A stretch of 64,000 nt of DNA from the IMG/VR virus record IMGVR_UViG_2630968332_000001, positions 32,001-96,000 of that record. One strand, written 5' to 3'. Made by a program: the position numbers and the translations under genes. Source of the stretch: a virus (Duplodnaviria; Caudoviricetes). The notes under the pieces were generated by a model. The model did not search any database, was not told the origin of the DNA, and was given only the letters and a program-made list of their open reading frames with translations. Of this stretch, positions 6,159-47,965 are shown one piece after another (within the stretch, counting starts at the first letter, position 1; every line of letters starts with the position of its first letter).

Positions 6159-6536
6159 TTGTTTGTAATGCTTGTATTTTCATGTTCTTTATATTATATT
6201 TTTATGCCACTATTGTTTTCAGCTGTGATATTAACGGGGAATGTGGGACAAGGAGTTTTGATTTTTTATATATGGACTATAATGCAGCCAATAGTATGGA
6301 CGATTATAGGTTCTTTTATGGGGTCTAAATTCTTTTTAATCGGTAAAATCCTAGAAGGCGACTTTGAAAAATTGTGGGGTTTACTTGCTAGTATTTTGCT
6401 AGTGGTTATGTGGTACACAGTTGTTCCATATTGTTTATGGCATTTGACATTGTGCTACCCAACTTGGTGGGTGTGTGTAATCTGGTGGTTGTGGGGTACT
6501 ACCCCAACCATAATGACTGTTATAACGGAGGAATAA
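6159..6536 (+). CDS. Membrane protein
   Basis: SD GAGGAGG; several TM segments. Confidence 0.6.
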   Translation: MFVMLVFSCSLYYIFMPLLFSAVILTGNVGQGVLIFYIWTIMQPIVWTIIGSFMGSKFFLIGKILEGDFEKLWGLLASILLVVMWYTVVPYCLWHLTLCYPTWWVCVIWWLWGTTPTIMTVITEE

Positions 6537-6538
6537 AC

Positions 6539-6952
6539 ATGACATTACAATTAGGTAATTTTGATGGTCTGATGATAAATAATAGATACGAATATCATTA
6601 TTGTATAGTTGCTTATATTAAAAGTGGATTGAATGACGCATATATTGCTCAGTACACTTACTTCGATGGTTTCTTTGAATTAGAAAAAGGGTATAAGAAA
6701 ATCGTTGACGCATTAGAAGGTCGTAGTAAATGGGTTAATACCGAGGCTGGAGTTTTTAGTGTAGAAGATATTGAACATATTGCTCCAGTGGTTGCCTATA
6801 ATGTCCCATCTGACGAATTTGACGAGGGGACATACAAAAAATGTTTGGACTTTAATGTGAGTAAAGGTGACGCTTTTGATGGTCGATACAATCATGTTAA
6901 ACACGTTCCTATTGATTTGATACGTGCTAGTGAAAGACAAGCACACGAATAA
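6539..6952 (+). CDS. Hypothetical protein (MTLQLG...)
   Basis: SD GGAGGA before ATG 6539 within ORF 6410..6952. Confidence 0.65.
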   Translation: MTLQLGNFDGLMINNRYEYHYCIVAYIKSGLNDAYIAQYTYFDGFFELEKGYKKIVDALEGRSKWVNTEAGVFSVEDIEHIAPVVAYNVPSDEFDEGTYKKCLDFNVSKGDAFDGRYNHVKHVPIDLIRASERQAHE

Positions 6953-9047: not shown

Positions 9048-9418
9048 CAAGTGCTGAAAGAGAGTTTAATAAATCAGTACGTAGATTAGACATGTACTTA
9101 GAAGATGGTAATATGGTCTCTGCTGACATTGAACTAAAATCTATGCGTAGAGTATATGATGAAATGAAGAAACTAGAAAGTCATAGTGTTACCTTCTGGC
9201 TTTTTGTTACAGCAGCTCTAGTTGTGTATATTGGTATGGGGTGGGGTAAGTATGAAATACCAACTATGCTAATGACAGGGCTAGAGGCAATATCATTTGC
9301 TTTGATGACTTATGTTTCTAATATAGTAGACAATTTCATTGATAATATCGAATACTGGGAAGACAAGTATAATCTGCATAAGGAGGTGAATAGACGAGTT
9401 GACAACAGTATCAACTAA
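9044..9418 (+). CDS. Membrane protein
   Basis: Two TM segments. Confidence 0.6.
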   Translation: MTSAEREFNKSVRRLDMYLEDGNMVSADIELKSMRRVYDEMKKLESHSVTFWLFVTAALVVYIGMGWGKYEIPTMLMTGLEAISFALMTYVSNIVDNFIDNIEYWEDKYNLHKEVNRRVDNSIN

Positions 9419-9659
9419 CAATGTAGTAACAGTATATACTAAGAATAATTGTCAGCAATGCAAAATGACAAAGAGAAAGTTGCAAGCTATGGGAGTTGAT
9501 TATCACGAATATAACGTAGATAACGACCCTAAAGCACTAGAATACCTATTAGAGAAAGGTTGGACTAGCTTACCTGTTGTAGTTACAGAAGATGATGTTT
9601 GGATGGGGCTGCGAATGGATAAGTTAAACAATCTTCAAAAAAAGATGAAGATTTCTTAG
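9399..9659 (+). CDS. nrdH: NrdH-like glutaredoxin
   Basis: VYTKNNCQQCKMTKR, SLPVV, W.G.R.D. Confidence 0.88.
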   Translation: MTTVSTNNVVTVYTKNNCQQCKMTKRKLQAMGVDYHEYNVDNDPKALEYLLEKGWTSLPVVVTEDDVWMGLRMDKLNNLQKKMKIS

Positions 9660-9667
9660 TTTTTCTG

Positions 9668-9731
9668 TTGACTTTTATTTTTTATATGGTATTATAATAT
9701 ATGTAAGTTAAGAGTTAAGAGAATAAACGAA
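9668..9731 (+). promoter_or_regulatory. Strong promoter of the RNA island with conserved leader motif
   Basis: TTGACT 9668-9673, TGgTATTATAAT 9687-9698, AGTTAAGAGTTAAGAGAATAAACGAA 9706-9731. Confidence 0.75.
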
Positions 9732-9812
9732 TAACTCAAAGCTACAACAAAACAATTAAATAAATCTGTTAAATATGTTGAACTTAATGTAATTGTCCTT
9801 ACGTGAGTCAAC

Positions 9813-10639: not shown

Positions 10640-11004
10640 AACTACATAAGGCAGCTTTGATTGTTGCTAAAGGGAACGGGTTGGTTTTTCACATCCTTTC
10701 AATAAATACAGATAATTAACCCCTATTTACTAATACGATACTGACACAGTTTTTCGTCCCGTTCTCTCTAGGAGCTATTAAAATGCTCTCCCAAAACAAG
10801 TCTACTATATGTTTAGAGTCTAGAGAATAAATGGTAGACATTTGGTATGTAAAATGTTGGACTGTCGGGAACACTATACCACACAAGCTAATATGCGGCT
10901 TTTACATACCACGCTCACAGACTTTAAAGGGAATGTGGGAGCGGATAGGCGAACGCGAATAGTGTAGTTAGTAAACCTATGCGTAATTATTTATCCTAGT
11001 TGGT

Positions 11005-11394: not shown

Positions 11395-11454
11395 CGCAAC
11401 GTAGCTCAACTGGTAGAGCAAAGGATGATGTGGGTTCGAGTCCCACCGTTGCAA
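11395..11454 (+). ncRNA. tRNA-like element lacking an anticodon arm
   Basis: Acceptor CGCAACG/CGTTGCA, canonical D arm TAGCTCAACTGGTAGAGC, only 10 nt before T arm GTGGG-TTCGAGT-CCCAC. Confidence 0.7.
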
Positions 11455-11500: not shown

Positions 11501-12757
11501 ATGAAGACAATGAGTGAGTTAAAATACCACTATGGCTTGAAGATGTGTATTCACCCTAGCACGAAGCAAAAGCAAATCATTAAGATGAACAGTGATGTAT
11601 CTAGGGCTGTATATAACGCTATGGTTGCGATTGATAAAGAGTTGTATCAACTCAAACAGGTAAAACTACCTATTGATACAATCCAAACACGTATTGCTGA
11701 ATTAGAAAAACGTAAGAAGGCTCAAAACTATTTAGCAACGCACTATACTTACATGAAACACCCTTATATTGATAGTCATTGTCGTTCTATGGCAATGCGT
11801 TCTTATAAAGCTGCATGGAATATGTTTAGAAAAGTTCATAACGTTGGTACACCTAATTTTCATAAGAAAACTTACGAGGAGAAGTATCAAACAAGTGGAA
11901 CTTATACGAGTAAGAAGAAACCAGTTAATATGTGGACTGGCTCAATTAGATTTGTAGACAATAAACATATTAATATTCCTAAGCTGGGTATTATTCGTGT
12001 GAGTGGTTCGTATAGAAAACTACTAGATAATAAAGATGATATTAGAATTGGCACAACTACTATTTCTAAAAATGCTTTTGGTATCTACTACGTTTCTATG
12101 CAGTTGGGTTCAGATACACCTTTTGTTAAAGAATTGCCTAAAACTAATTCTCAAGTTGGAATCGACTTGAATACAGATAACTTCTTAACAACAAGCGAAG
12201 GTAATGTTATAGCTAACCCGAGATTTTATAGAACTATCAAGGGTCGATTGGCTAAAGCACAACGTAAATTATCACGCAGACAAGTTAGAGCCAAGAAAGA
12301 AGGACGCTCCTTACGTGATAGCAAGAATTACCAAAAGCAACGCATAGTGGTATCAAAACTTATGAATAAAGTGCGTAATCAACGTAATAAATTCTTAGAT
12401 GAAATGTCAATAACACTTATCAAGAACCACGATTTGGTTGTGGCTGAAAATCTAAGAAGTAAAAATATGTTGAGAAATCACGCTTTGGCTATGTCTATTA
12501 GTGATGTAGGTTGGAGAACATTCCTACAAAAACTAGAATACAAAGCTGAATTATATGGTAAGACTTTTGTTACTGTAAATCCTAAGAATACTACACAAAC
12601 ATGTAGCGAATGTGGGCATGTTATGGGAACAAAAGATACGGATAAGCTAACACTAAAAGATAGAAGTTGGGCTTGTCCTAGCTGTAATACTTACCATATA
12701 CGTGATGTAAATGCAGCAAAGAATATCCTAGACAAAGGATTAAAACAATTAGCCTAG
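11501..12757 (+). CDS. tnpB: IS200/IS605-family RNA-guided endonuclease TnpB (solo, no tnpA)
   Basis: N-terminal HTH, RuvC-I GIDLN, RuvC-II VAENL, Zn finger CSEC..CPSC, RuvC-III RDVNAAKNI; catalytic D/E/D intact. Confidence 0.93.
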   Translation: MKTMSELKYHYGLKMCIHPSTKQKQIIKMNSDVSRAVYNAMVAIDKELYQLKQVKLPIDTIQTRIAELEKRKKAQNYLATHYTYMKHPYIDSHCRSMAMRSYKAAWNMFRKVHNVGTPNFHKKTYEEKYQTSGTYTSKKKPVNMWTGSIRFVDNKHINIPKLGIIRVSGSYRKLLDNKDDIRIGTTTISKNAFGIYYVSMQLGSDTPFVKELPKTNSQVGIDLNTDNFLTTSEGNVIANPRFYRTIKGRLAKAQRKLSRRQVRAKKEGRSLRDSKNYQKQRIVVSKLMNKVRNQRNKFLDEMSITLIKNHDLVVAENLRSKNMLRNHALAMSISDVGWRTFLQKLEYKAELYGKTFVTVNPKNTTQTCSECGHVMGTKDTDKLTLKDRSWACPSCNTYHIRDVNAAKNILDKGLKQLA

Positions 12758-12936
12758 AAATAGGTAGTCCGTTTGTCTGTTGCGGACTCAAAAGCATTTG
12801 GTAATTACCATGTAAGACCTTTATTTCAGATTTTTCTGATACAAAGGCAACGGTGTATCTAATGAAATTTTGGCAACCCTAAAAAATTAGGAGTTCCCAA
12901 AACCCTAGTACTGTGGGATTTGTTAGTCTGTTTTTA
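12755..12936 (+). ncRNA. omega-RNA/tracr-like scaffold of TnpB
   Basis: Directly 3' of tnpB; hairpin AGTCCGT-ttgtctgtt-GCGGACT; RE-like hairpin CAAAACCC..GGGATTTG. Confidence 0.65.
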
Positions 12937-12938
12937 GT

Positions 12939-13155
12939 GTGTTACCCATATGTGCGTGGGGACAGACTGGAATACGTACAAACGATATACTCAAACTCAA
13001 GGTGTTACCCACATACGTGTGGGGCAGACTACGGCAAGTTTTTTAAAGACAATGAAGAATATGTGTTACCCATATGTGCGTGGGGACAGACTATATGTAG
13101 TTAAGAGTTTAGCGAACAAACGAAAGTGCTACTCATATGTGTCAAAGAACATATA
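12939..13155 (+). CRISPR. CRISPR-like mini-array: 3 repeats plus 1 degenerate, 3 spacers
   Basis: GTGTTACCCATATGTGCGTGGGGACAGACT at 12939-12968 and 13063-13092 (identical), variant 13002-13030, degenerate from 13126; unique spacers of 33, 32 and 33 nt; repeat hairpin. Confidence 0.88.
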
Positions 13156-16699: not shown

Positions 16700-17257
16700 A
16701 TGGTTTACAATTCTAAACCACTTAGAACACAAGCCCAGATAGATGATGTGTTATTCTATTTAAGACGAACTCGTTATCCAGAACGTGATACATTCTTATT
16801 TTTGATTGGAATTAACACTGGGTTAAGATGTTCTGACATAGTGAAACTCAAAATAGGTACTTTAAGACATTCCAAGCGACCAGAAATCACAGAGAAGAAA
16901 ACTGGTAAAAAGAGAACGTTATTCCTAGACAATGTGCAAGATATTGTGCGTGATTATATCGAAGGCAAAGATGATAGTGAGTGGGCATTCCCATCTAGCT
17001 ATGATAAGAGCAAACATATAACGGTGCAGAATGTATATAAACTATTCAAACGAATTGATAATGAATTAGGTGGAATAGGTTTTACCACACACTCTATGAG
17101 AAGGACGTTCGGTTTGTGGTATTATCGTAAGACTAAAAACATATATTACTTGATGGAGTTGTTCAATCATTCCAGTCAAACCATCACCATGAGATATATC
17201 GGTCTTACGGAAGATGAGTTAGGGGACTCTTTAGAAGGGTTCAGAATAGGGTATTAA
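16700..17257 (+). CDS. Tyrosine recombinase (catalytic domain only)
   Basis: TGLRCSD, EKKTG, HSMRR, FNHSS, RYIG give the R-K-H-R-H-Y set. Confidence 0.9.
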   Translation: MVYNSKPLRTQAQIDDVLFYLRRTRYPERDTFLFLIGINTGLRCSDIVKLKIGTLRHSKRPEITEKKTGKKRTLFLDNVQDIVRDYIEGKDDSEWAFPSSYDKSKHITVQNVYKLFKRIDNELGGIGFTTHSMRRTFGLWYYRKTKNIYYLMELFNHSSQTITMRYIGLTEDELGDSLEGFRIGY

Positions 17258-21611: not shown

Positions 21612-22022
21612 TTAAACCTCCAAAGCGATTTCTTCTGTTTCTTCATCAACCTTAATGATAGGTTTTGTTTTACCTCTTTCATCAACAAAATCTCTAAACT
21701 CATCTACTGAATTAAATTCCAACAGCTTATTATTGTCTAAGATAACCGTTGGTGCGTCAATCATATCATTACGTGTTTTTAGTTCAGCCACATATGTTAC
21801 AGGTACAGAACCCTTAATCTTTACACGCAAAGCAAATGCTCTTACGTTGTCATTTTGTTTGTCTGTAAACATCGCATGAATTGATTTGATTACATCGCCC
21901 CTAACACCATAAGATGAAGGCTTGTAACCATATTCAGCTGCAATGTCTAAGACTTGATTGTACCTGTCTAATAGTTCCTTACGTACTTCTGTACCACAAA
22001 ACTTAGATGATGTCATTGTCAT
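21612..22022 (-). CDS. Hypothetical protein
   Basis: SD GAGGT. Confidence 0.6.
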   Translation of the reverse strand: MTMTSSKFCGTEVRKELLDRYNQVLDIAAEYGYKPSSYGVRGDVIKSIHAMFTDKQNDNVRAFALRVKIKGSVPVTYVAELKTRNDMIDAPTVILDNNKLLEFNSVDEFRDFVDERGKTKPIIKVDEETEEIALEV

Positions 22023-22671: not shown

Positions 22672-22890
22672 GGTTTAGCACCTCCAAAGTATTGTTAAAA
22701 ATTCTCGGCACGAATTAACGGTATGTGCCTAAGCCCCACCACGCTCTCAAAAACGTGTGATAGCTCAAATCTGCTAATGTAAGGCGATTGACGTGACTAA
22801 TAAAGTACAATCCATTCATACCTTATTTTATATTGGTAGATTTATCTACCTATGACCTATTAACCTTTTACAATTAATAGACCCAGTGCA

Positions 22891-28408: not shown

Positions 28409-29965
28409 CTGCTATATAAAATGTGGAATAATGTAGAACAATATTTATTAGTTCTACATTATTAGAAAGAAATATAGTTTTTCCTTTCCTAGATTTTATT
28501 TACTACCGTCAACAACAGTATTCCCATATCCTAATAAAAGGGTAATGACATTGACTGTCTCTGATAACCTAAGGGTGTAGCCCACCCCGTTGTATTTTTA
28601 TGCTACTAAATTCAATAAATTCATAACCGCATTTTCATCTCTATCCATAATCGAACCACATTCATAACAAATATATTCGTTATGTTTTGTTCCATGCTTA
28701 CGATTACCATTAAGACCAACTTTATCTTCGCCAGTCTTGATATATCCACATTCAGAACATCTTTGTGTGCTTGGATAATATTGGTCTGCTAAGACTATTT
28801 CCTTGCCATACCAGCCAGCTTTATAAACCAATACTTGTCTAAAAGTTCCAAATAATGACCTTTGTAAACCTTTAGAAGCAACGTGTGTCATCTGCATTTT
28901 CTTCACATCTAAATCTTCGATTACGATTTTGTCGTAATCACTTACTAATTTAGTTGTAAATTTATGAATAATATCATGTTGGATATTAGCCACTTTACGA
29001 TAATCACGTTGCAACTTGGCTCTCGTTTTAACGTAATTATTCGACTTAGTTGCTTTCTTTCCATTAACAACACGTTTTCTAGCTAACTGACGTTGGTAAT
29101 GTTTGATACGTTTATAGAGTTTCTTTAGATGATTAGGCAATGTATTAACTTTACCTTCGGTATAGTTAAAATGACCGACATTAATATCTACAGCTGTTTT
29201 CTTACCAGTTTTAGTTTTCTTGGTTATTTCAACTTCAAAAGGTAAACTAGCCCAATATTTACCGTTTTCACGATAAATTGATACAACTTTTAAATCACCA
29301 TCTAAACTCTTAGCGCCTTTAAAACTAATACCATACCAAGTTTTAACCCCACGAGGTTTATCAAGTCTTAACTTGCCATTAATAATCTTGGCTCTGTCAG
29401 TTTTAAAACCTTGTCTAGTAGCTTTCTTAGATTTAAATTTAGGTTTACCCCAGTCTGGCATAGCTTTATTAAAAAAGTTGCTCCATGCTTTACCTAAATC
29501 AGAAATCGCTAACTGTAAGCAACGAGGTGATAATTGATACTGCCAATCCTCTTTATTAGCTACTAACTCATCACGCACCTTGCGTTCGCTAGGTTTTAAC
29601 TTTTTATCATCTAAAATCAACGAACTATCATACATATCATTCCATAAAGCTAAGCCTTGATTCCAACAATATCTACGATAATCACATAAATCATCAAGAA
29701 CTTTCTTCATGGTTTTATTTGGATAAAGTCTTACCTTTTGCGTTCTAATCATATATATCACCACCTTGCTTCACAAAATTGATATAATAAATTTATCTTC
29801 TATATTATACTAACTTTAGAGAAGTAAGTCAAGATATATTCATGAAAAAATGAAGATGTTTTATGTTTTTGAATTCATTGTTTTTAAGCCTATTTCACAT
29901 TTTTACTCTTTCTAGTAGGCTCGTTGTTCTATATAGTTCTACATAATTCTATATTTTTGTTAACA
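28409..29965 (-). mobile_element. Non-autonomous IS607-family element (tnpB only); ends approximate
   Basis: TAGAA subterminal repeats at both ends (~29925-29955 and ~28430-28460); separates an SD and CTG from the MTase frame. Confidence 0.6.
28598..29764 (-). CDS. tnpB: IS607-type TnpB RNA-guided endonuclease
   Basis: MIRTQKVRLYPN, TAVDIN, VIEDLD, CSECG..CYECG, DRDENA; catalytic residues intact. Confidence 0.9.
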   Translation of the reverse strand: MVIYMIRTQKVRLYPNKTMKKVLDDLCDYRRYCWNQGLALWNDMYDSSLILDDKKLKPSERKVRDELVANKEDWQYQLSPRCLQLAISDLGKAWSNFFNKAMPDWGKPKFKSKKATRQGFKTDRAKIINGKLRLDKPRGVKTWYGISFKGAKSLDGDLKVVSIYRENGKYWASLPFEVEITKKTKTGKKTAVDINVGHFNYTEGKVNTLPNHLKKLYKRIKHYQRQLARKRVVNGKKATKSNNYVKTRAKLQRDYRKVANIQHDIIHKFTTKLVSDYDKIVIEDLDVKKMQMTHVASKGLQRSLFGTFRQVLVYKAGWYGKEIVLADQYYPSTQRCSECGYIKTGEDKVGLNGNRKHGTKHNEYICYECGSIMDRDENAVMNLLNLVA

Positions 29966-34945: not shown

Positions 34946-35009
34946 TTCGTTTATTCACTGAACTCTTAACTTAACTATTATATTATATCATATATTAATA
35001 TTAAATCAA
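34946..35009 (-). promoter_or_regulatory. Promoter with conserved leader motif and hairpin
   Basis: TTGATT..TGaTATAAT then AGTTAAGAGTTCAGTGAATAAACGAA. Confidence 0.7.
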
Positions 35010-35169
35010 GAATTAAACACAAAAAACCTCGCAGCAAAATACTACGAGGTCAAAAAGGTTTACAGTGTGTTATAATGTATCGTGGCGAAAGTTATAAAGA
35101 CGGTGGCTGACTTATTAGAAAGTGTGGTGTTGCCTATGCAATGCGAAACTAACGAAAGGAAAGCCATTT

Positions 35170-35253
35170 GTGTCTGTCTATCAAGCCTTGATGTTGACGT
35201 TAACATTCGGTATGTTCCTATTGGCATTACTGACATACATCAGCAAAAAGTAA
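35170..35253 (+). CDS. Holin-like type I toxin (BsrE/BsrH-like, 27 aa)
   Basis: MSVYQALMLTLTFGMFLLALLTYISKK; SD GAAAGGA; own promoter and terminator. Confidence 0.85.
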   Translation: MSVYQALMLTLTFGMFLLALLTYISKK

Positions 35254-45595: not shown

Positions 45596-47965
45596 TTAGT
45601 ATTTATATGGTGCTGAGAAGAAGATAGCTTTCATTTTGCTACTTCCTCCCTCATCAATGATTGGCTTAATCGCACCATCTAACATCTTTGTTAAACCTTC
45701 GCCTGTGATAGTATATGGTATTCTTACTAAAAAGATGTCATTGTCATCACAGTATTGGTTTTTAATTTTGTCGTAATTGATACGTTCTTCAAACTTTTCA
45801 TCGCCACCCCAGTATTCCACTGATTTGAAATGCTGTTCACCATCATATTCGATAGCCATATTAGCAGATGGGATATAGAAATCGAACGGTAGTGGTTGTG
45901 CATTACCAACACAATCATTAAAAGTCTTTTGTGGTTCATAATCAATATTATGTTCAATCAGGTAATCTTCGATTTGAGCCTCACCACGCGACCTACCTTT
46001 TCTAACACAACGTGGACATTCTGTCCCGCCATTAACAAAATTGCTAGGACTCGTCTTCCATTCATAACCGCAAGTATTGTGCTTCATAAGAATAGGTGTA
46101 CTACTGTTCACATATTTACCTAGCACAGTATACTCATCACCTCGCAATGCCGCTACTTCATCTTTATATTGTTTTGTTGTCTTTTTAAACTTACCAAAAC
46201 AATGTGGACAACCAGTCCCATTTATTATATGCGACGGAGCCATCTTAAACTCTTTACCACATACGACATGTTTAAATAATGTTTTTTCCTGTGCTTTTAC
46301 ATATCTACCCAAAAGTATATACTCGTCACCACGTACTTTTTTCAATCTCTTTTCAAACTTTTCGGTAGTGATATTCTTGCCACCACCATGACATTCGGCA
46401 CACATACCACGTTTATGAAGAAATTGGTTAGGGGTTTTCGTATAGATAGTACCGCATGGATTGTGCTTATATTTAATTGGTACTCTTGCACCTTTGTATT
46501 CCTCCAAAAAAGTGTATTCATCTCCAACTAAATCATATACCTCTTTTAAAAACTCCTCGTTTGTTTTCGTGGCATTTTTAATATGACACTTTATACAACG
46601 TGAACCAGATTTAAATTGTGCTGGACGTGTTTTCCATATATAGCCACACTTGTTATGACGTACCCGAATAGATGTTGAGTAGTTAACATATGGGGCTAAG
46701 AATGTATATTCATCTCCAACCATGTCATATACTTCTTTTACCCATTCTTCATTAGTTTTGCCTCCACCTATTCTGCCCTTCTTCCATGAATGATAATTTC
46801 CAGTTCTTTTACCTCTACACTTTTTACAGCCTTTCCAATGTGAAAGATAATCGGCACGAACCGTAGTTACCTCACCACATGATAAATGTTTTATCTCTAA
46901 TTTTGTTTTTGCATTTTCGTATTCATTTAAGATTGTATAATCTTTACCATGAACTTCGTGTAATCTTTTTACTATTTGCTCGGTAGTCATTGAACGTGAT
47001 TTATCATAGCATTTTTTACATCTTTGTCCTTGAAGATAAAAGTTATTAGGCGATATTTTAAATTCATTACCACACTCATTATGTCGACATAGTATTGGGT
47101 GCTTACTATTAACATAATCTTCCAAAAAGACGTATTCGTCCCCAGCTACCTCTTTTACCCTTTTCGCCCACTCTTTATTGCTTATTTTACGACTATTTAT
47201 TTCGCATTGTGGACATCTAGTACCAGCTAAAAAATCATGCGGTGTAACACACCATTCATACCCACAAACACTATGTTTGCATTTCATTTTAACATTAGAC
47301 CTTGTATATGGTTCTGGGAATAAATACTCATCACCTGTAAGACTATGGTAATCTTTCTCCCATTGTTCCTGTGTTTTAAGCGTACCTTTGTTTTTAGCAC
47401 ATTTCTTACACCTTGTACCATACAAAAAGTTCTTTGGTTTAATTTTGTAAACATAACCACATTCGTTATGTCTAACCCTCATAGCTGTTTCACGATTTTG
47501 ATAAGTATCTAAAAAGGTATACTCATCGCCCACAAGATTAAATACATCTTCTTTCCACTGTTTATCACTTTTATTATGTCTTTCAGCTTTACAGATTGGA
47601 CATCTTTCGCCCTTCATAAAATCAATAGGCATAACATTAAACGTCTTACCACAAACAGTGTGTTCTGCGTGGATAGCAGTTTGATTATCAACGTAATCGC
47701 CAATGAAGTTATATTCATCAACGCTATTGAGTTTCTTTATACCTTTAAGCCACTCGCCATTATTTTTAAACGTTCTATACTTACCACACTTTAAACACGA
47801 ATTTCTGCGCATAAATTGTTTAGGTGTTATTAGATAGGTTTCGTTACAAACATTATGTTTAATTCTTAATTTTGTATAATTATTTTCATACTCATCAAGA
47901 ACCTCATATTCGTCACCATATCTCTCTTTAACTCTATCTTCAAAATTGTTTCTTCTCAAATACAT
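45596..47965 (-). CDS. Multi-Zn-ribbon repeat protein with C-terminal Vsr/DUF559-like endonuclease (homing endonuclease-like)
   Basis: Ten ~64-aa repeats GDEY..H..CG..P..F..G..CxxC; SRGE..PFDFYI..IEYDGEQHF..D..KN. Confidence 0.8.
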   Translation of the reverse strand: MYLRRNNFEDRVKERYGDEYEVLDEYENNYTKLRIKHNVCNETYLITPKQFMRRNSCLKCGKYRTFKNNGEWLKGIKKLNSVDEYNFIGDYVDNQTAIHAEHTVCGKTFNVMPIDFMKGERCPICKAERHNKSDKQWKEDVFNLVGDEYTFLDTYQNRETAMRVRHNECGYVYKIKPKNFLYGTRCKKCAKNKGTLKTQEQWEKDYHSLTGDEYLFPEPYTRSNVKMKCKHSVCGYEWCVTPHDFLAGTRCPQCEINSRKISNKEWAKRVKEVAGDEYVFLEDYVNSKHPILCRHNECGNEFKISPNNFYLQGQRCKKCYDKSRSMTTEQIVKRLHEVHGKDYTILNEYENAKTKLEIKHLSCGEVTTVRADYLSHWKGCKKCRGKRTGNYHSWKKGRIGGGKTNEEWVKEVYDMVGDEYTFLAPYVNYSTSIRVRHNKCGYIWKTRPAQFKSGSRCIKCHIKNATKTNEEFLKEVYDLVGDEYTFLEEYKGARVPIKYKHNPCGTIYTKTPNQFLHKRGMCAECHGGGKNITTEKFEKRLKKVRGDEYILLGRYVKAQEKTLFKHVVCGKEFKMAPSHIINGTGCPHCFGKFKKTTKQYKDEVAALRGDEYTVLGKYVNSSTPILMKHNTCGYEWKTSPSNFVNGGTECPRCVRKGRSRGEAQIEDYLIEHNIDYEPQKTFNDCVGNAQPLPFDFYIPSANMAIEYDGEQHFKSVEYWGGDEKFEERINYDKIKNQYCDDNDIFLVRIPYTITGEGLTKMLDGAIKPIIDEGGSSKMKAIFFSAPYKY

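Follow-up and report, generated by a model that had tools for sequence, protein, structure and literature searches.

The subject of this report is a short repeat-spacer array that follows a tnpB-like gene in a virus of the Caudoviricetes, and in particular the last of its three spacers. The window, meaning the whole stretch of 64,000 nucleotides (nt) that was analysed, comprises bases 32001-96000 of one 129,218-bp virus record (IMG/VR IMGVR_UViG_2630968332_000001, referred to as G000 herein), which has a G+C content of 34%. The array begins 181 noncoding nt past the tnpB stop codon, and the locus is laid out as follows.

11501-12757, + strand: tnpB-like gene, 418 amino acids, with the RuvC D/E/D motifs and the zinc ribbon intact
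12758-12938, + strand: omegaRNA-derived scaffold; first hairpin at 12767-12787 with loop strand GTCTGT at 12775-12780, last unit at about 12903-12931
12939-12968, + strand: repeat 1, 30 nt; GTGTTA followed by a CCCA..TGGG hairpin and the ACAGACT handle
12969-13001, + strand: spacer 1, 33 nt
13002-13030, + strand: repeat 2, 29 nt; variant form whose stem changes compensate each other (CCCACA/TGTGGG)
13031-13062, + strand: spacer 2, 32 nt, A/T-rich
13063-13092, + strand: repeat 3, 30 nt, identical to repeat 1
13093-13125, + strand: spacer 3, 33 nt; positions 1-17 match the orthologous promoter/leader site of sister phages
13126-13155, + strand: degenerate terminal repeat, in agreement with the repeat at 14 of the first 16 bases and decayed beyond them; it is kept together with its downstream flank in sister G002

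For comparison we used two sister phages from IMG/VR, G001 (126.5 kb) and G002 (127.3 kb), which cover 82% of G000 at 93-95% identity; G003, an unrelated 180-kb phage that has 3.5% of G000 in common, the tnpB-array cassette included; two metagenome-derived relatives, L035 and L036 (TnpB identity 96% and 92%); and four metagenome runs from four studies, labelled chicken gut metagenome, feces metagenome or with a coded organism. Site-level comparisons draw on three sisters (G001, G002 and L035), and whole-genome comparisons on two (G001 and G002). TnpB, scaffold and an array are present in each of these phages, L035 and L036 included, but the spacers differ from those of the window. The arrays of G000, G001, G002 and G003 hold three to five spacers each, and none of the 15 spacers is common to different genomes. 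In G002 the terminal repeat and the flank behind it are those of the window, yet the last spacer differs, and in contigs of the runs X1 and X11 the repeats are separated by other inserts again. Spacer 3 is a real spacer, in register, and not a stray copy of the leader motif described next.

The first-pass annotation of this DNA had claimed that a 26-nt core of spacer 3 recurs behind three of the carrier's own promoters, and that the whole spacer aligns at 9699, behind TATAAT, once a single extra A is allowed. We reproduced both observations. The core matches at 9706-9731 (23/26), at 34946-34971 on the minus strand (23/26) and at 565-590 (22/26), and all three sites lie about 11 nt past a TTGAC..(16 nt)..TATAAT/TATTAT promoter-like pair. 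At three or fewer mismatches, the window contains three core matches versus none in 100 shuffles. The features concerned are the following.

9668-9698, + strand: promoter-like pair; TTGACT at 9668-9673, 16 nt, TATTAT at 9690-9695 and an overlapping TATAAT at 9693-9698
9699-9732, + strand: self near-protospacer of spacer 3, 29/33 once the extra A (self position 8, window 9705/9706) is removed
565-590, + strand: promoter-leader copy, 22/26 to the spacer core, without the first 6-7 bases of the spacer
34946-34971, - strand: promoter-leader copy, 23/26 to the spacer core, without the first 6-7 bases of the spacer

The self site at 9699 has TATAAT immediately 5′ of it, so that its flank ends in AAT, and it probably spans the transcription start as well as the conserved leader motif. 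Its promoter-like pair, for which our promoter scan preferred TATTAT (9690-9695; 16-nt spacing) as the -10 element, heads the tRNA/tnpB/array block and is conserved in G001, G002 and L035. Between this promoter and the array we found no better plus-strand promoter site (scan matches of 16 vs 18.5, i.e. chance level), and the sole terminator-like site in that scan lies inside tnpB. Genome-wide, a 22-nt core of the leader motif gave 22 matches at six or fewer mismatches, as compared to 2-6 in each of 10 shuffles. Eight of the 22 stand behind a promoter-like pair, and several have a ribosome-binding site and a start codon close downstream. Copies of the motif (..AGAGTCTAGAGAATAAAT) also occur without an upstream promoter-like pair, at window 10811-10832 and at G000 8326, 11674, 23419 (minus strand) and 124847 (minus strand), and the motif may have a role of its own as an RNA or protein-binding signal, beyond that of a transcribed leader.

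Upon analysis of the sister phages, we found that the same promoter carries the spacer sequence uninterrupted. In G001, G002 and L035, TATAAT is followed directly by ATATGTAGTTAAGAGTT..., with mismatches to spacer 3 only at positions 18, 21, 25 and 33; promoter and target together read ...TATTATAAT and then ATATGTAGTTAAGAGTTAAGAGAATAAACGAAT, giving identity over positions 1-17 and 29/33 overall. The first 14-17 nt of spacer 3 occur once per genome in G001 and G002, and in G000 only within the array. The extra A at base 9705 is missing from all three assembled sisters that hold the site and from all four metagenome runs. Because sisters and runs both lack it, the 1-nt insertion is by parsimony most simply taken as derived in the carrier. 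In a four-way alignment it is the only G000-private change within 9612-9739, a segment that includes the gene end, the promoter and the leader, while the upstream open reading frame (ORF) contains many G000-private changes; in the four runs, the substitutions listed include no run-shared one over 9651-9767. The insertion falls at guide position 8, proximal to the presumptive target-adjacent motif (TAM). For ISDra2 TnpB, the published accounts give a native guide of about 16 nt with positions 1-12 essential and positions 13-16 tolerant (PMC8612924, PMC10097598), which places position 8 within the region where that enzyme tolerates no mismatch.

In our reading, spacer 3 is a guide that directs TnpB to the conserved promoter-leader of sister phages, the carrier being protected by an insertion in the seed, and we put the probability of this at about 0.6. 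The best reading of its use is that of an inter-phage weapon, for exclusion and/or homing, combined with self-escape.

The 418-amino-acid protein exceeds the Pfam cut-offs for OrfB_IS605 (PF01385, 60.9 bits), Cas12f1-like_TNB (PF07282, 89 bits) and HTH_OrfB_IS605 (PF12323, 25.2 bits). It aligns with ISDra2 TnpB over its full length (E 1.3e-35) and more weakly with LaTranC, there only over residues 282-411 in the C-terminal part (E 4.9e-23). Its GIDLN, VAEN and RDVNAA segments align opposite the ISDra2 catalytic segments GVDVG, GTEH and RDENAA. The D191A substitution is reported to inactivate ISDra2 TnpB (PMC8612924). Within the phage clade, TnpB identity is 98% for L001, 97% for L002 and 93% for L003, in addition to L035 and L036 above, and a scan of IMG/VR with P0007 (a TnpB relative at 80-85%) returned no further phage of the clade. 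The cassette is found on two unrelated phage backbones, and the sequence shared between them begins 19-29 nt 5′ of the tnpB ATG, with a tRNA-like gene alongside. The bacterial relatives are multi-copy insertion sequences (ISs) of Lactobacillaceae with about 50-74% protein identity; the nearest named homologs are from Ligilactobacillus salivarius and L. agilis (65-68%). A transposon left end and a divergent tnpA, which many relatives have, were not found at the phage tnpB locus, nor did the 129-kb record yield a match to Cas1 or Cas2 (PF01867, PF09827) in searches whose controls were positive.

The scaffold downstream of tnpB is collinear with the scaffolds of the bacterial IS relatives, whose omegaRNAs end in a hairpin and (T/A)GTTGAC followed by a flank-derived guide. 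In G003 the scaffold ends ...GGGATAGACT (also given as ...CCCTAGTACGATGGGATAGACT) and abuts a 32-nt guide, and the subsequent repeats end ...TACATGGGATAGACT. Because this scaffold end resembles the 3′ half of the repeat and abuts a guide, the repeat would be a duplicated 3′ module of the omegaRNA. In the window, the scaffold's last unit (about 12903-12931) corresponds to the 3′ half of the repeat in decayed form, and the scaffold's own module copy is decayed throughout G000-G002. Changes in the repeat hairpin are compensatory (CCCAT(A)/(C)GTGGG, CCCACA/TGTGGG and CCCATG/CATGGG). A wider survey took in 113 TnpB-family loci whose downstream sequence reached 300 nt or more. Periodic repeats were found only in the phage clade (L001, L002, L003 and L036) and in L076, apart from L005, with a simple repeat of 5 nt, and L081, with a short pair attributable to chance; in L035, which fell below the length filter, the first repeat was seen.

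The loop of the first scaffold hairpin is complementary to the linker next to the guide, and the two covary. In the bacterial ISs the pairs are CAACC/GGTTG and CAACT/AGTTG. In the phage clade GTCTGT is paired with ACAGAC or, by way of a G-U pair, with ATAGAC, and the 3′ handle of the repeat serves as the linker. Complementarity is kept across three sequence states among the 15 distinct loop/linker combinations listed; in L036 the match is only partial. The ISDra2 structure, as reported, has a pseudoknot at the same position, between an upstream segment and the bases right before the guide (PMC10097598). Each repeat-spacer unit could thus dock on the scaffold, and handle-loop complementarity together with covariation would fit use of CRISPR (clustered regularly interspaced short palindromic repeats) RNA from the array by the effector.

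Three of the 15 spacers have counterparts within the genome of the phage family itself, each of them at a site near the cassette. The target of spacer 3 is 1.8 kb upstream of tnpB. Spacer 5 of G002 (G002_S5) matches G001 at 30/32 when a gap of 2 nt is allowed; this site is some 0.3 kb upstream of tnpB, in a tRNA-like region that diverges fast. The third, G002_S3, points to a gene downstream of the array:

16700-17257, + strand: small tyrosine-recombinase-like ORF, 185 amino acids, containing HSSQTITMRY

G002_S3 encodes HSSQAITMRY against HSSQTITMRY of this ORF, with 24/32 identity at the DNA level, TTCAAT immediately 5′ and a site about 4-5 kb downstream of the array. The protein score was 47 versus a maximum of 44 in 60 shuffles, and a wobble-degenerate pattern for the peptide matched the spacer itself only. 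Were sites placed uniformly along a 128-kb genome, three of three would fall within about 5 kb with a probability on the order of 1e-3. Such proximity would fit homing-type repair that copies the cassette into a cut rival, and it would also fit selection for linkage between guide and escape allele in freely recombining phages. In the mini-arrays of archaeal viruses, too, targets are described as close by, own loci as mutated and sisters' spacers as differing at the same position, with the proximity left unexplained in that account (PMC6858448).

For the remaining 12 spacers no target was found in the comparisons that follow. When the spacers of the four phage genomes were compared to those genomes, no significant DNA match was found besides spacer 3 of G000 and G002_S5. 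No target of the other spacers was present in 78 IMG/VR loci coding for homologs (31-41%) of the recombinase-like ORF, GenBank phages contained none for the spacers of the window and L001 arrays, and 33 genomes of the genus of L122 (Ligilactobacillus) contained no match to the array spacers. The G002 array produced one chance-level match only. Two candidates were rejected: a match of spacer 1 to the recombinase-like ORF (score 33 vs a shuffled-best mean of 33.5) and matches of spacer 2 in 401 Lactobacillaceae genomes, which are at chance level (best 28/32, E 1.6e-4 per genome, with seed mismatches).

Immediately 5′ of the inferred targets stand TATAAT for spacer 3, TAAAAT for G002_S5 in G001 and TTCAAT for G002_S3 at the recombinase-like gene. 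With an AAT frequency of 0.033, at least three of four flanks ending in this way corresponds to P = 1.4e-4. The left boundaries of related ISs, which occupy the TAM position, begin TTCAAT, TTCAT or TTTTAAT, and we infer a TAM that ends in AAT. TnpB is likely the effector, since handle and loop covary and the AAT-ending flanks resemble the TAM of the ISs.

In the mechanism that we propose, the array would have arisen by serial duplication of the 3′ module of the TnpB omegaRNA, that is, the last hairpin and the pseudoknot strand. It would be transcribed on the plus strand, each unit consisting of hairpin, ACAGAC handle and guide. The handle would pair with the GTCTGT loop of the scaffold encoded right after tnpB, and TnpB, nuclease-competent as judged by its intact motifs, would be directed to DNA in which an AAT-ending TAM precedes the guide sequence. 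Spacer 3 would be aimed at the transcript start of the early-type promoter heading the tRNA/tnpB block of sister phages. The carrier's own copy would be spared because the derived 1-nt insertion, at guide position 8, falls in the TAM-proximal region that TnpB needs. When co-infecting relatives compete, the rival genome would likely be destroyed and/or forced to repair from the carrier. Expression, assembly of the guide RNA in trans, cleavage and an effect on fitness are what we infer from the sequences compared.

Several observations weigh against this interpretation. One suggestion of the first-pass annotation was that spacer 3 cleaves the corresponding promoter in a sister phage and spares the self site; as a check it named a perfect protospacer in relatives. 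The first part agrees with the sister sequences in both the match and the missing A; the perfect protospacer did not turn up, as a 33/33 match was found neither in the three sisters nor in IMG/VR or GenBank phages. At three or fewer mismatches spacer 3 had no match in G001-G003, and an IMG/VR search in which N replaced the three variable positions yielded the two sisters and nothing else. The donor of spacer 3 would be unsampled, and the spacer could be old and decaying. Taken alone, the insertion is statistically weak: one private change in 128 nt has a chance of about 0.26 of falling in the 33-nt site and of about 0.09 of falling in positions 1-12. With regard to the TAM, TATAAT agrees with the TTCAAT of the IS relatives at only four of six bases, and two of the three flanks come from diverged near-targets and not from true protospacers. 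Every relative seen carries the cassette too, so that simple homing of a carrier against an empty site does not apply. The repeat-spacer unit would, moreover, have to join the scaffold, in cis or in trans. Finally, the layout is that of another kind of system. Type I-E arrays have repeats of about 28-29 nt, spacers of 32-33 nt and a hairpin with a 3′ handle; the repeats here are 29-30 nt with a GTGTT start, a hairpin and a 7-8-nt handle, and the spacers are 32-33 nt. The G003 repeat also resembles the reverse complement of the L076 array repeat (score 8; null mean -5.1, maximum 4 of 300 shuffles), and uniform 32-33-nt spacers with fast turnover call for some integrase, of the ruler type, in a phage where we found no Cas1 or Cas2.

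The first two of these points would also be met with if spacer 3 were a relic, once taken from a relative's promoter-leader and now useless, with the internal mismatches as decay and the extra A as a neutral change. Spacer 3 further adjoins the degenerate terminal repeat, which is the oldest position in canonical arrays. Old spacers, however, do not seem to persist here, given that arrays turn over fully between genomes of 93-95% identity. The mismatches begin at position 18, past the roughly 16-nt guide of ISDra2 TnpB, and the one private change in the promoter-leader stretch, 128 nt that are invariant apart from it, falls in the seed. On balance we regard a relic as rather unlikely.

The type I-E-like layout, and the integrase that it seems to call for, would be explained if the array were a type I-E-style mini-array served by host Cascade and Cas3, with host Cas1-Cas2 supplying the spacers and TnpB a mere neighbour. 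The repeat, however, occurred in none of the 401 Lactobacillaceae genomes (pattern search, three or fewer mismatches) and in none of the 33 Ligilactobacillus genomes of the L122 genus (BLAST); these sets sample one genome per species, and the true host may lie outside them. The ACAGAC handle pairs and covaries with the loop of the TnpB scaffold across the family, the array accompanies tnpB on two unrelated phage backbones, and the G003 scaffold itself ends in the repeat's 3′ half, abutting a guide. Of the three internal mismatches to the sister site, only position 18 is a multiple of six. An 'every sixth base' argument in favour of type I-E was accordingly dropped, as among mismatches 18, 21, 25 and 33 there is one multiple of six. 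Replacement of TnpB by host machinery is quite improbable, while a host contribution, at least to spacer gain, is possible.

L076, which also showed periodic repeats, encodes a TnpB of 59% identity. At 6440-6800 it has a normal omegaRNA end and guide, then 28-nt repeats at a 61-nt period and degenerate copies. These look like a separate array beside an ordinary IS and, read on the opposite strand, like a lactobacillar type I-E repeat. L076 may be an IS that landed next to a host array, a possible route to hybrid repeats.

Self-regulation was the second function raised by the first-pass annotation, in which spacer 3 acts as a partial-match guide that represses the element's own promoters. The near-target does adjoin the -10 box, with the transcription start probably inside it, and TldRs, some of them phage-borne, are reported to repress promoters through TAM-flanked guides (bioRxiv 10.1101/2023.11.30.569447). 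Yet TldRs are defined by loss of the catalytic residues, all three of which are kept here (D/E/D), the self site is bulged at position 8 where ISDra2 needs positions 1-12, and the other leader copies have none of guide positions 1-6, which makes imperfect binding and repression of the carrier's leaders very improbable. It is scarcely credible that spacer 3 is a resident copy of the leader motif, multi-copy as that is, caught between two repeat-like sequences (the fallback of the same annotation), because it is exactly 33 nt and in register between a full and a terminal repeat, has no -35/-10 pair upstream, and is replaced by other sequences between the same flanks at the homologous position in G002 and X1.

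If spacer 3 is indeed a TnpB guide against sister phages, the cassette as a whole might be an RNA-programmed homing/exclusion device of lytic phages, a suggestion that we make tentatively. Guides and targets within a few kb, with the resistant allele next door, would form a linked poison-antidote pair; a cut rival repaired from the carrier would inherit TnpB, array and allele together. Spacers might be gained by TAM-linked capture or by a borrowed host type I-E integrase. Free-standing phage homing endonucleases of the Seg/Mob type cut a relative's genome close to their own gene but not at it, and spread by repair from the resistant carrier. Their specificity is fixed and protein-based, whereas here it would be RNA-programmed and exchangeable.

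The cassette combines known kinds, virus-borne mini-arrays and TnpB-to-type-V intermediates, and is no new category. The Sulfolobus portogloboviruses SPV1 and SPV2 carry mini-CRISPR arrays that have been placed in interviral conflicts (Medvedeva et al. 2019, PMC6858448). Like them, the phages have short arrays at the same position in sisters, with differing spacers, close-relative targets near the array and an altered own locus. SPV1 and SPV2 are described as archaeal viruses with one or two spacers, host-type repeats and, as far as that account goes, no effector gene of their own; unlike them, the present cassette is from a bacterial phage and has three to five spacers, an adjacent TnpB and repeats built on an omegaRNA handle. 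With ISDra2 TnpB, as characterized in the cited work, it shares a size of about 400 amino acids, RuvC D/E/D, the zinc ribbon, the guide-adjacent pseudoknot and a TAM 5′ of the target (PMC8612924, PMC10097598). In contrast to ISDra2 it has neither TnpA nor a left end, and several exchangeable array guides instead of one flank-derived guide.

Type V-U and TranC-like intermediates likewise are reported to have a TnpB-sized effector, a downstream array and no Cas1, Cas2 or Cas4 (PMC10691335; bioRxiv 10.1101/2025.09.28.678669), and many V-U groups are listed as lacking cas1 and cas2 (PMC10691335). Origin of arrays by duplication of an omegaRNA segment has been proposed for TnpB-to-Cas12 intermediates (Altae-Tran et al. 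2023, PMC10691335; bioRxiv 10.1101/2025.09.28.678669). Unlike TranC, the protein here is much closer to ISDra2 TnpB than to LaTranC. Cas12r of Thermus Lalka phages (bioRxiv 10.64898/2026.04.20.719267) and the 'Cas12 hacker' (bioRxiv 10.1101/2025.01.20.633832) are also phage-owned small type V nucleases with an array, proposed to act against rival mobile elements. Cas12r spacers are said to target mostly integrative elements and not sister phages (bioRxiv 10.64898/2026.04.20.719267), and the abstracts of the two reports describe neither an escaping self allele nor an omegaRNA-derived repeat. TldRs, which are TnpB-family proteins and sometimes phage-borne, have guides that match TAM-adjacent promoters, and the phage's own paralogous promoter is reported to have TAM or seed changes that prevent self-targeting (bioRxiv 10.1101/2023.11.30.569447). 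The reported TldRs have lost RuvC residues and repress host genes, whereas the present protein retains these residues and the site matched by its guide belongs to sister phages.

How TnpB elements became CRISPR systems, and which selection favours arrays at the outset, are open questions. The window holds a TnpB much like that of a plain IS with an array that would come from its own omegaRNA end, full spacer turnover between phages of about 94% identity, and at least one guide for which both the likely target, a constrained promoter-leader of sisters, and an escape allele can be seen. It would thus be an unusually clear natural intermediate between transposon nuclease and CRISPR system, located inside a phage. 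Were the homing/exclusion device real, it would be a living example of that transition within a virus. The pattern of targets near the array with a mutated own locus would extend from archaeal viruses to bacteriophages. The group is cultivable and offers a testable system for spacer gain without Cas1-Cas2, split guide RNAs with a minimal TnpB, and RNA-guided phage competition or homing.

A number of smaller observations concern the arrays. One other spacer in the array of run X1 has, by eye, a leader-motif-like ..GAATAAAC.. stretch, and leader-derived guides may occur in more than one array of the population. The G001 array (L001 7620-7700, corresponding to G001 21877-21940) ends in a full repeat and lacks both the degenerate terminal repeat and the flank of the latter. 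Right after that last repeat, the first 16 nt are the reverse complement of the 3′ end of the tRNA-Ser that lies downstream in G000 and G002, and the rearrangement breakpoint is therefore exactly at the repeat/guide boundary.

With respect to TnpB and its surroundings, G000 carries three TnpB-family genes. The second lies at window 28598-29764 on the minus strand and is followed by an Rfam 'Transposase-1 RNA' match at 28509-28567 (minus strand, 72 bits). The third, outside the window at about 20.2-21.6 kb of G000, is within a 2.2-kb segment 97.8% identical to G003. Directly 5′ of the tnpB in the array cassette, Rfam calls a tRNA at window 11395-11454 (plus strand, 46 bits) that ARAGORN does not call. 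In G003 and L036 the cassette likewise stands directly behind a tRNA-like 3′ end, and tRNA clusters may be favoured by the cassette. The ORF upstream of the targeted promoter, at window 9399-9659 on the plus strand, appears by eye to encode a small CxxC (CQQC) glutaredoxin/NrdH-like protein; a preprint describes a phage miniature Cas12 that is activated by host thioredoxin.

The named TnpB homologs, an Rfam 'salivarius-1 RNA' match and the run labels are all that suggests a host group. The Rfam match lies inside the phage at window 22731-22785 on the minus strand (56 bits, gathering level), and relatives are present in runs labelled chicken gut or feces metagenome. Elsewhere in the window, a match to the Listeria sRNA rli28 (35061-35240, plus strand; 65 bits, gathering level) adjoins the minus-strand promoter-leader copy at 34946-34971. 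Lastly, a 789-amino-acid ORF at 45596-47965 on the minus strand has a DUF4379 treble-clef zinc-finger match, and by tblastn it matches fragments that carry HNH or homing endonuclease annotations in many large phages of Firmicutes.

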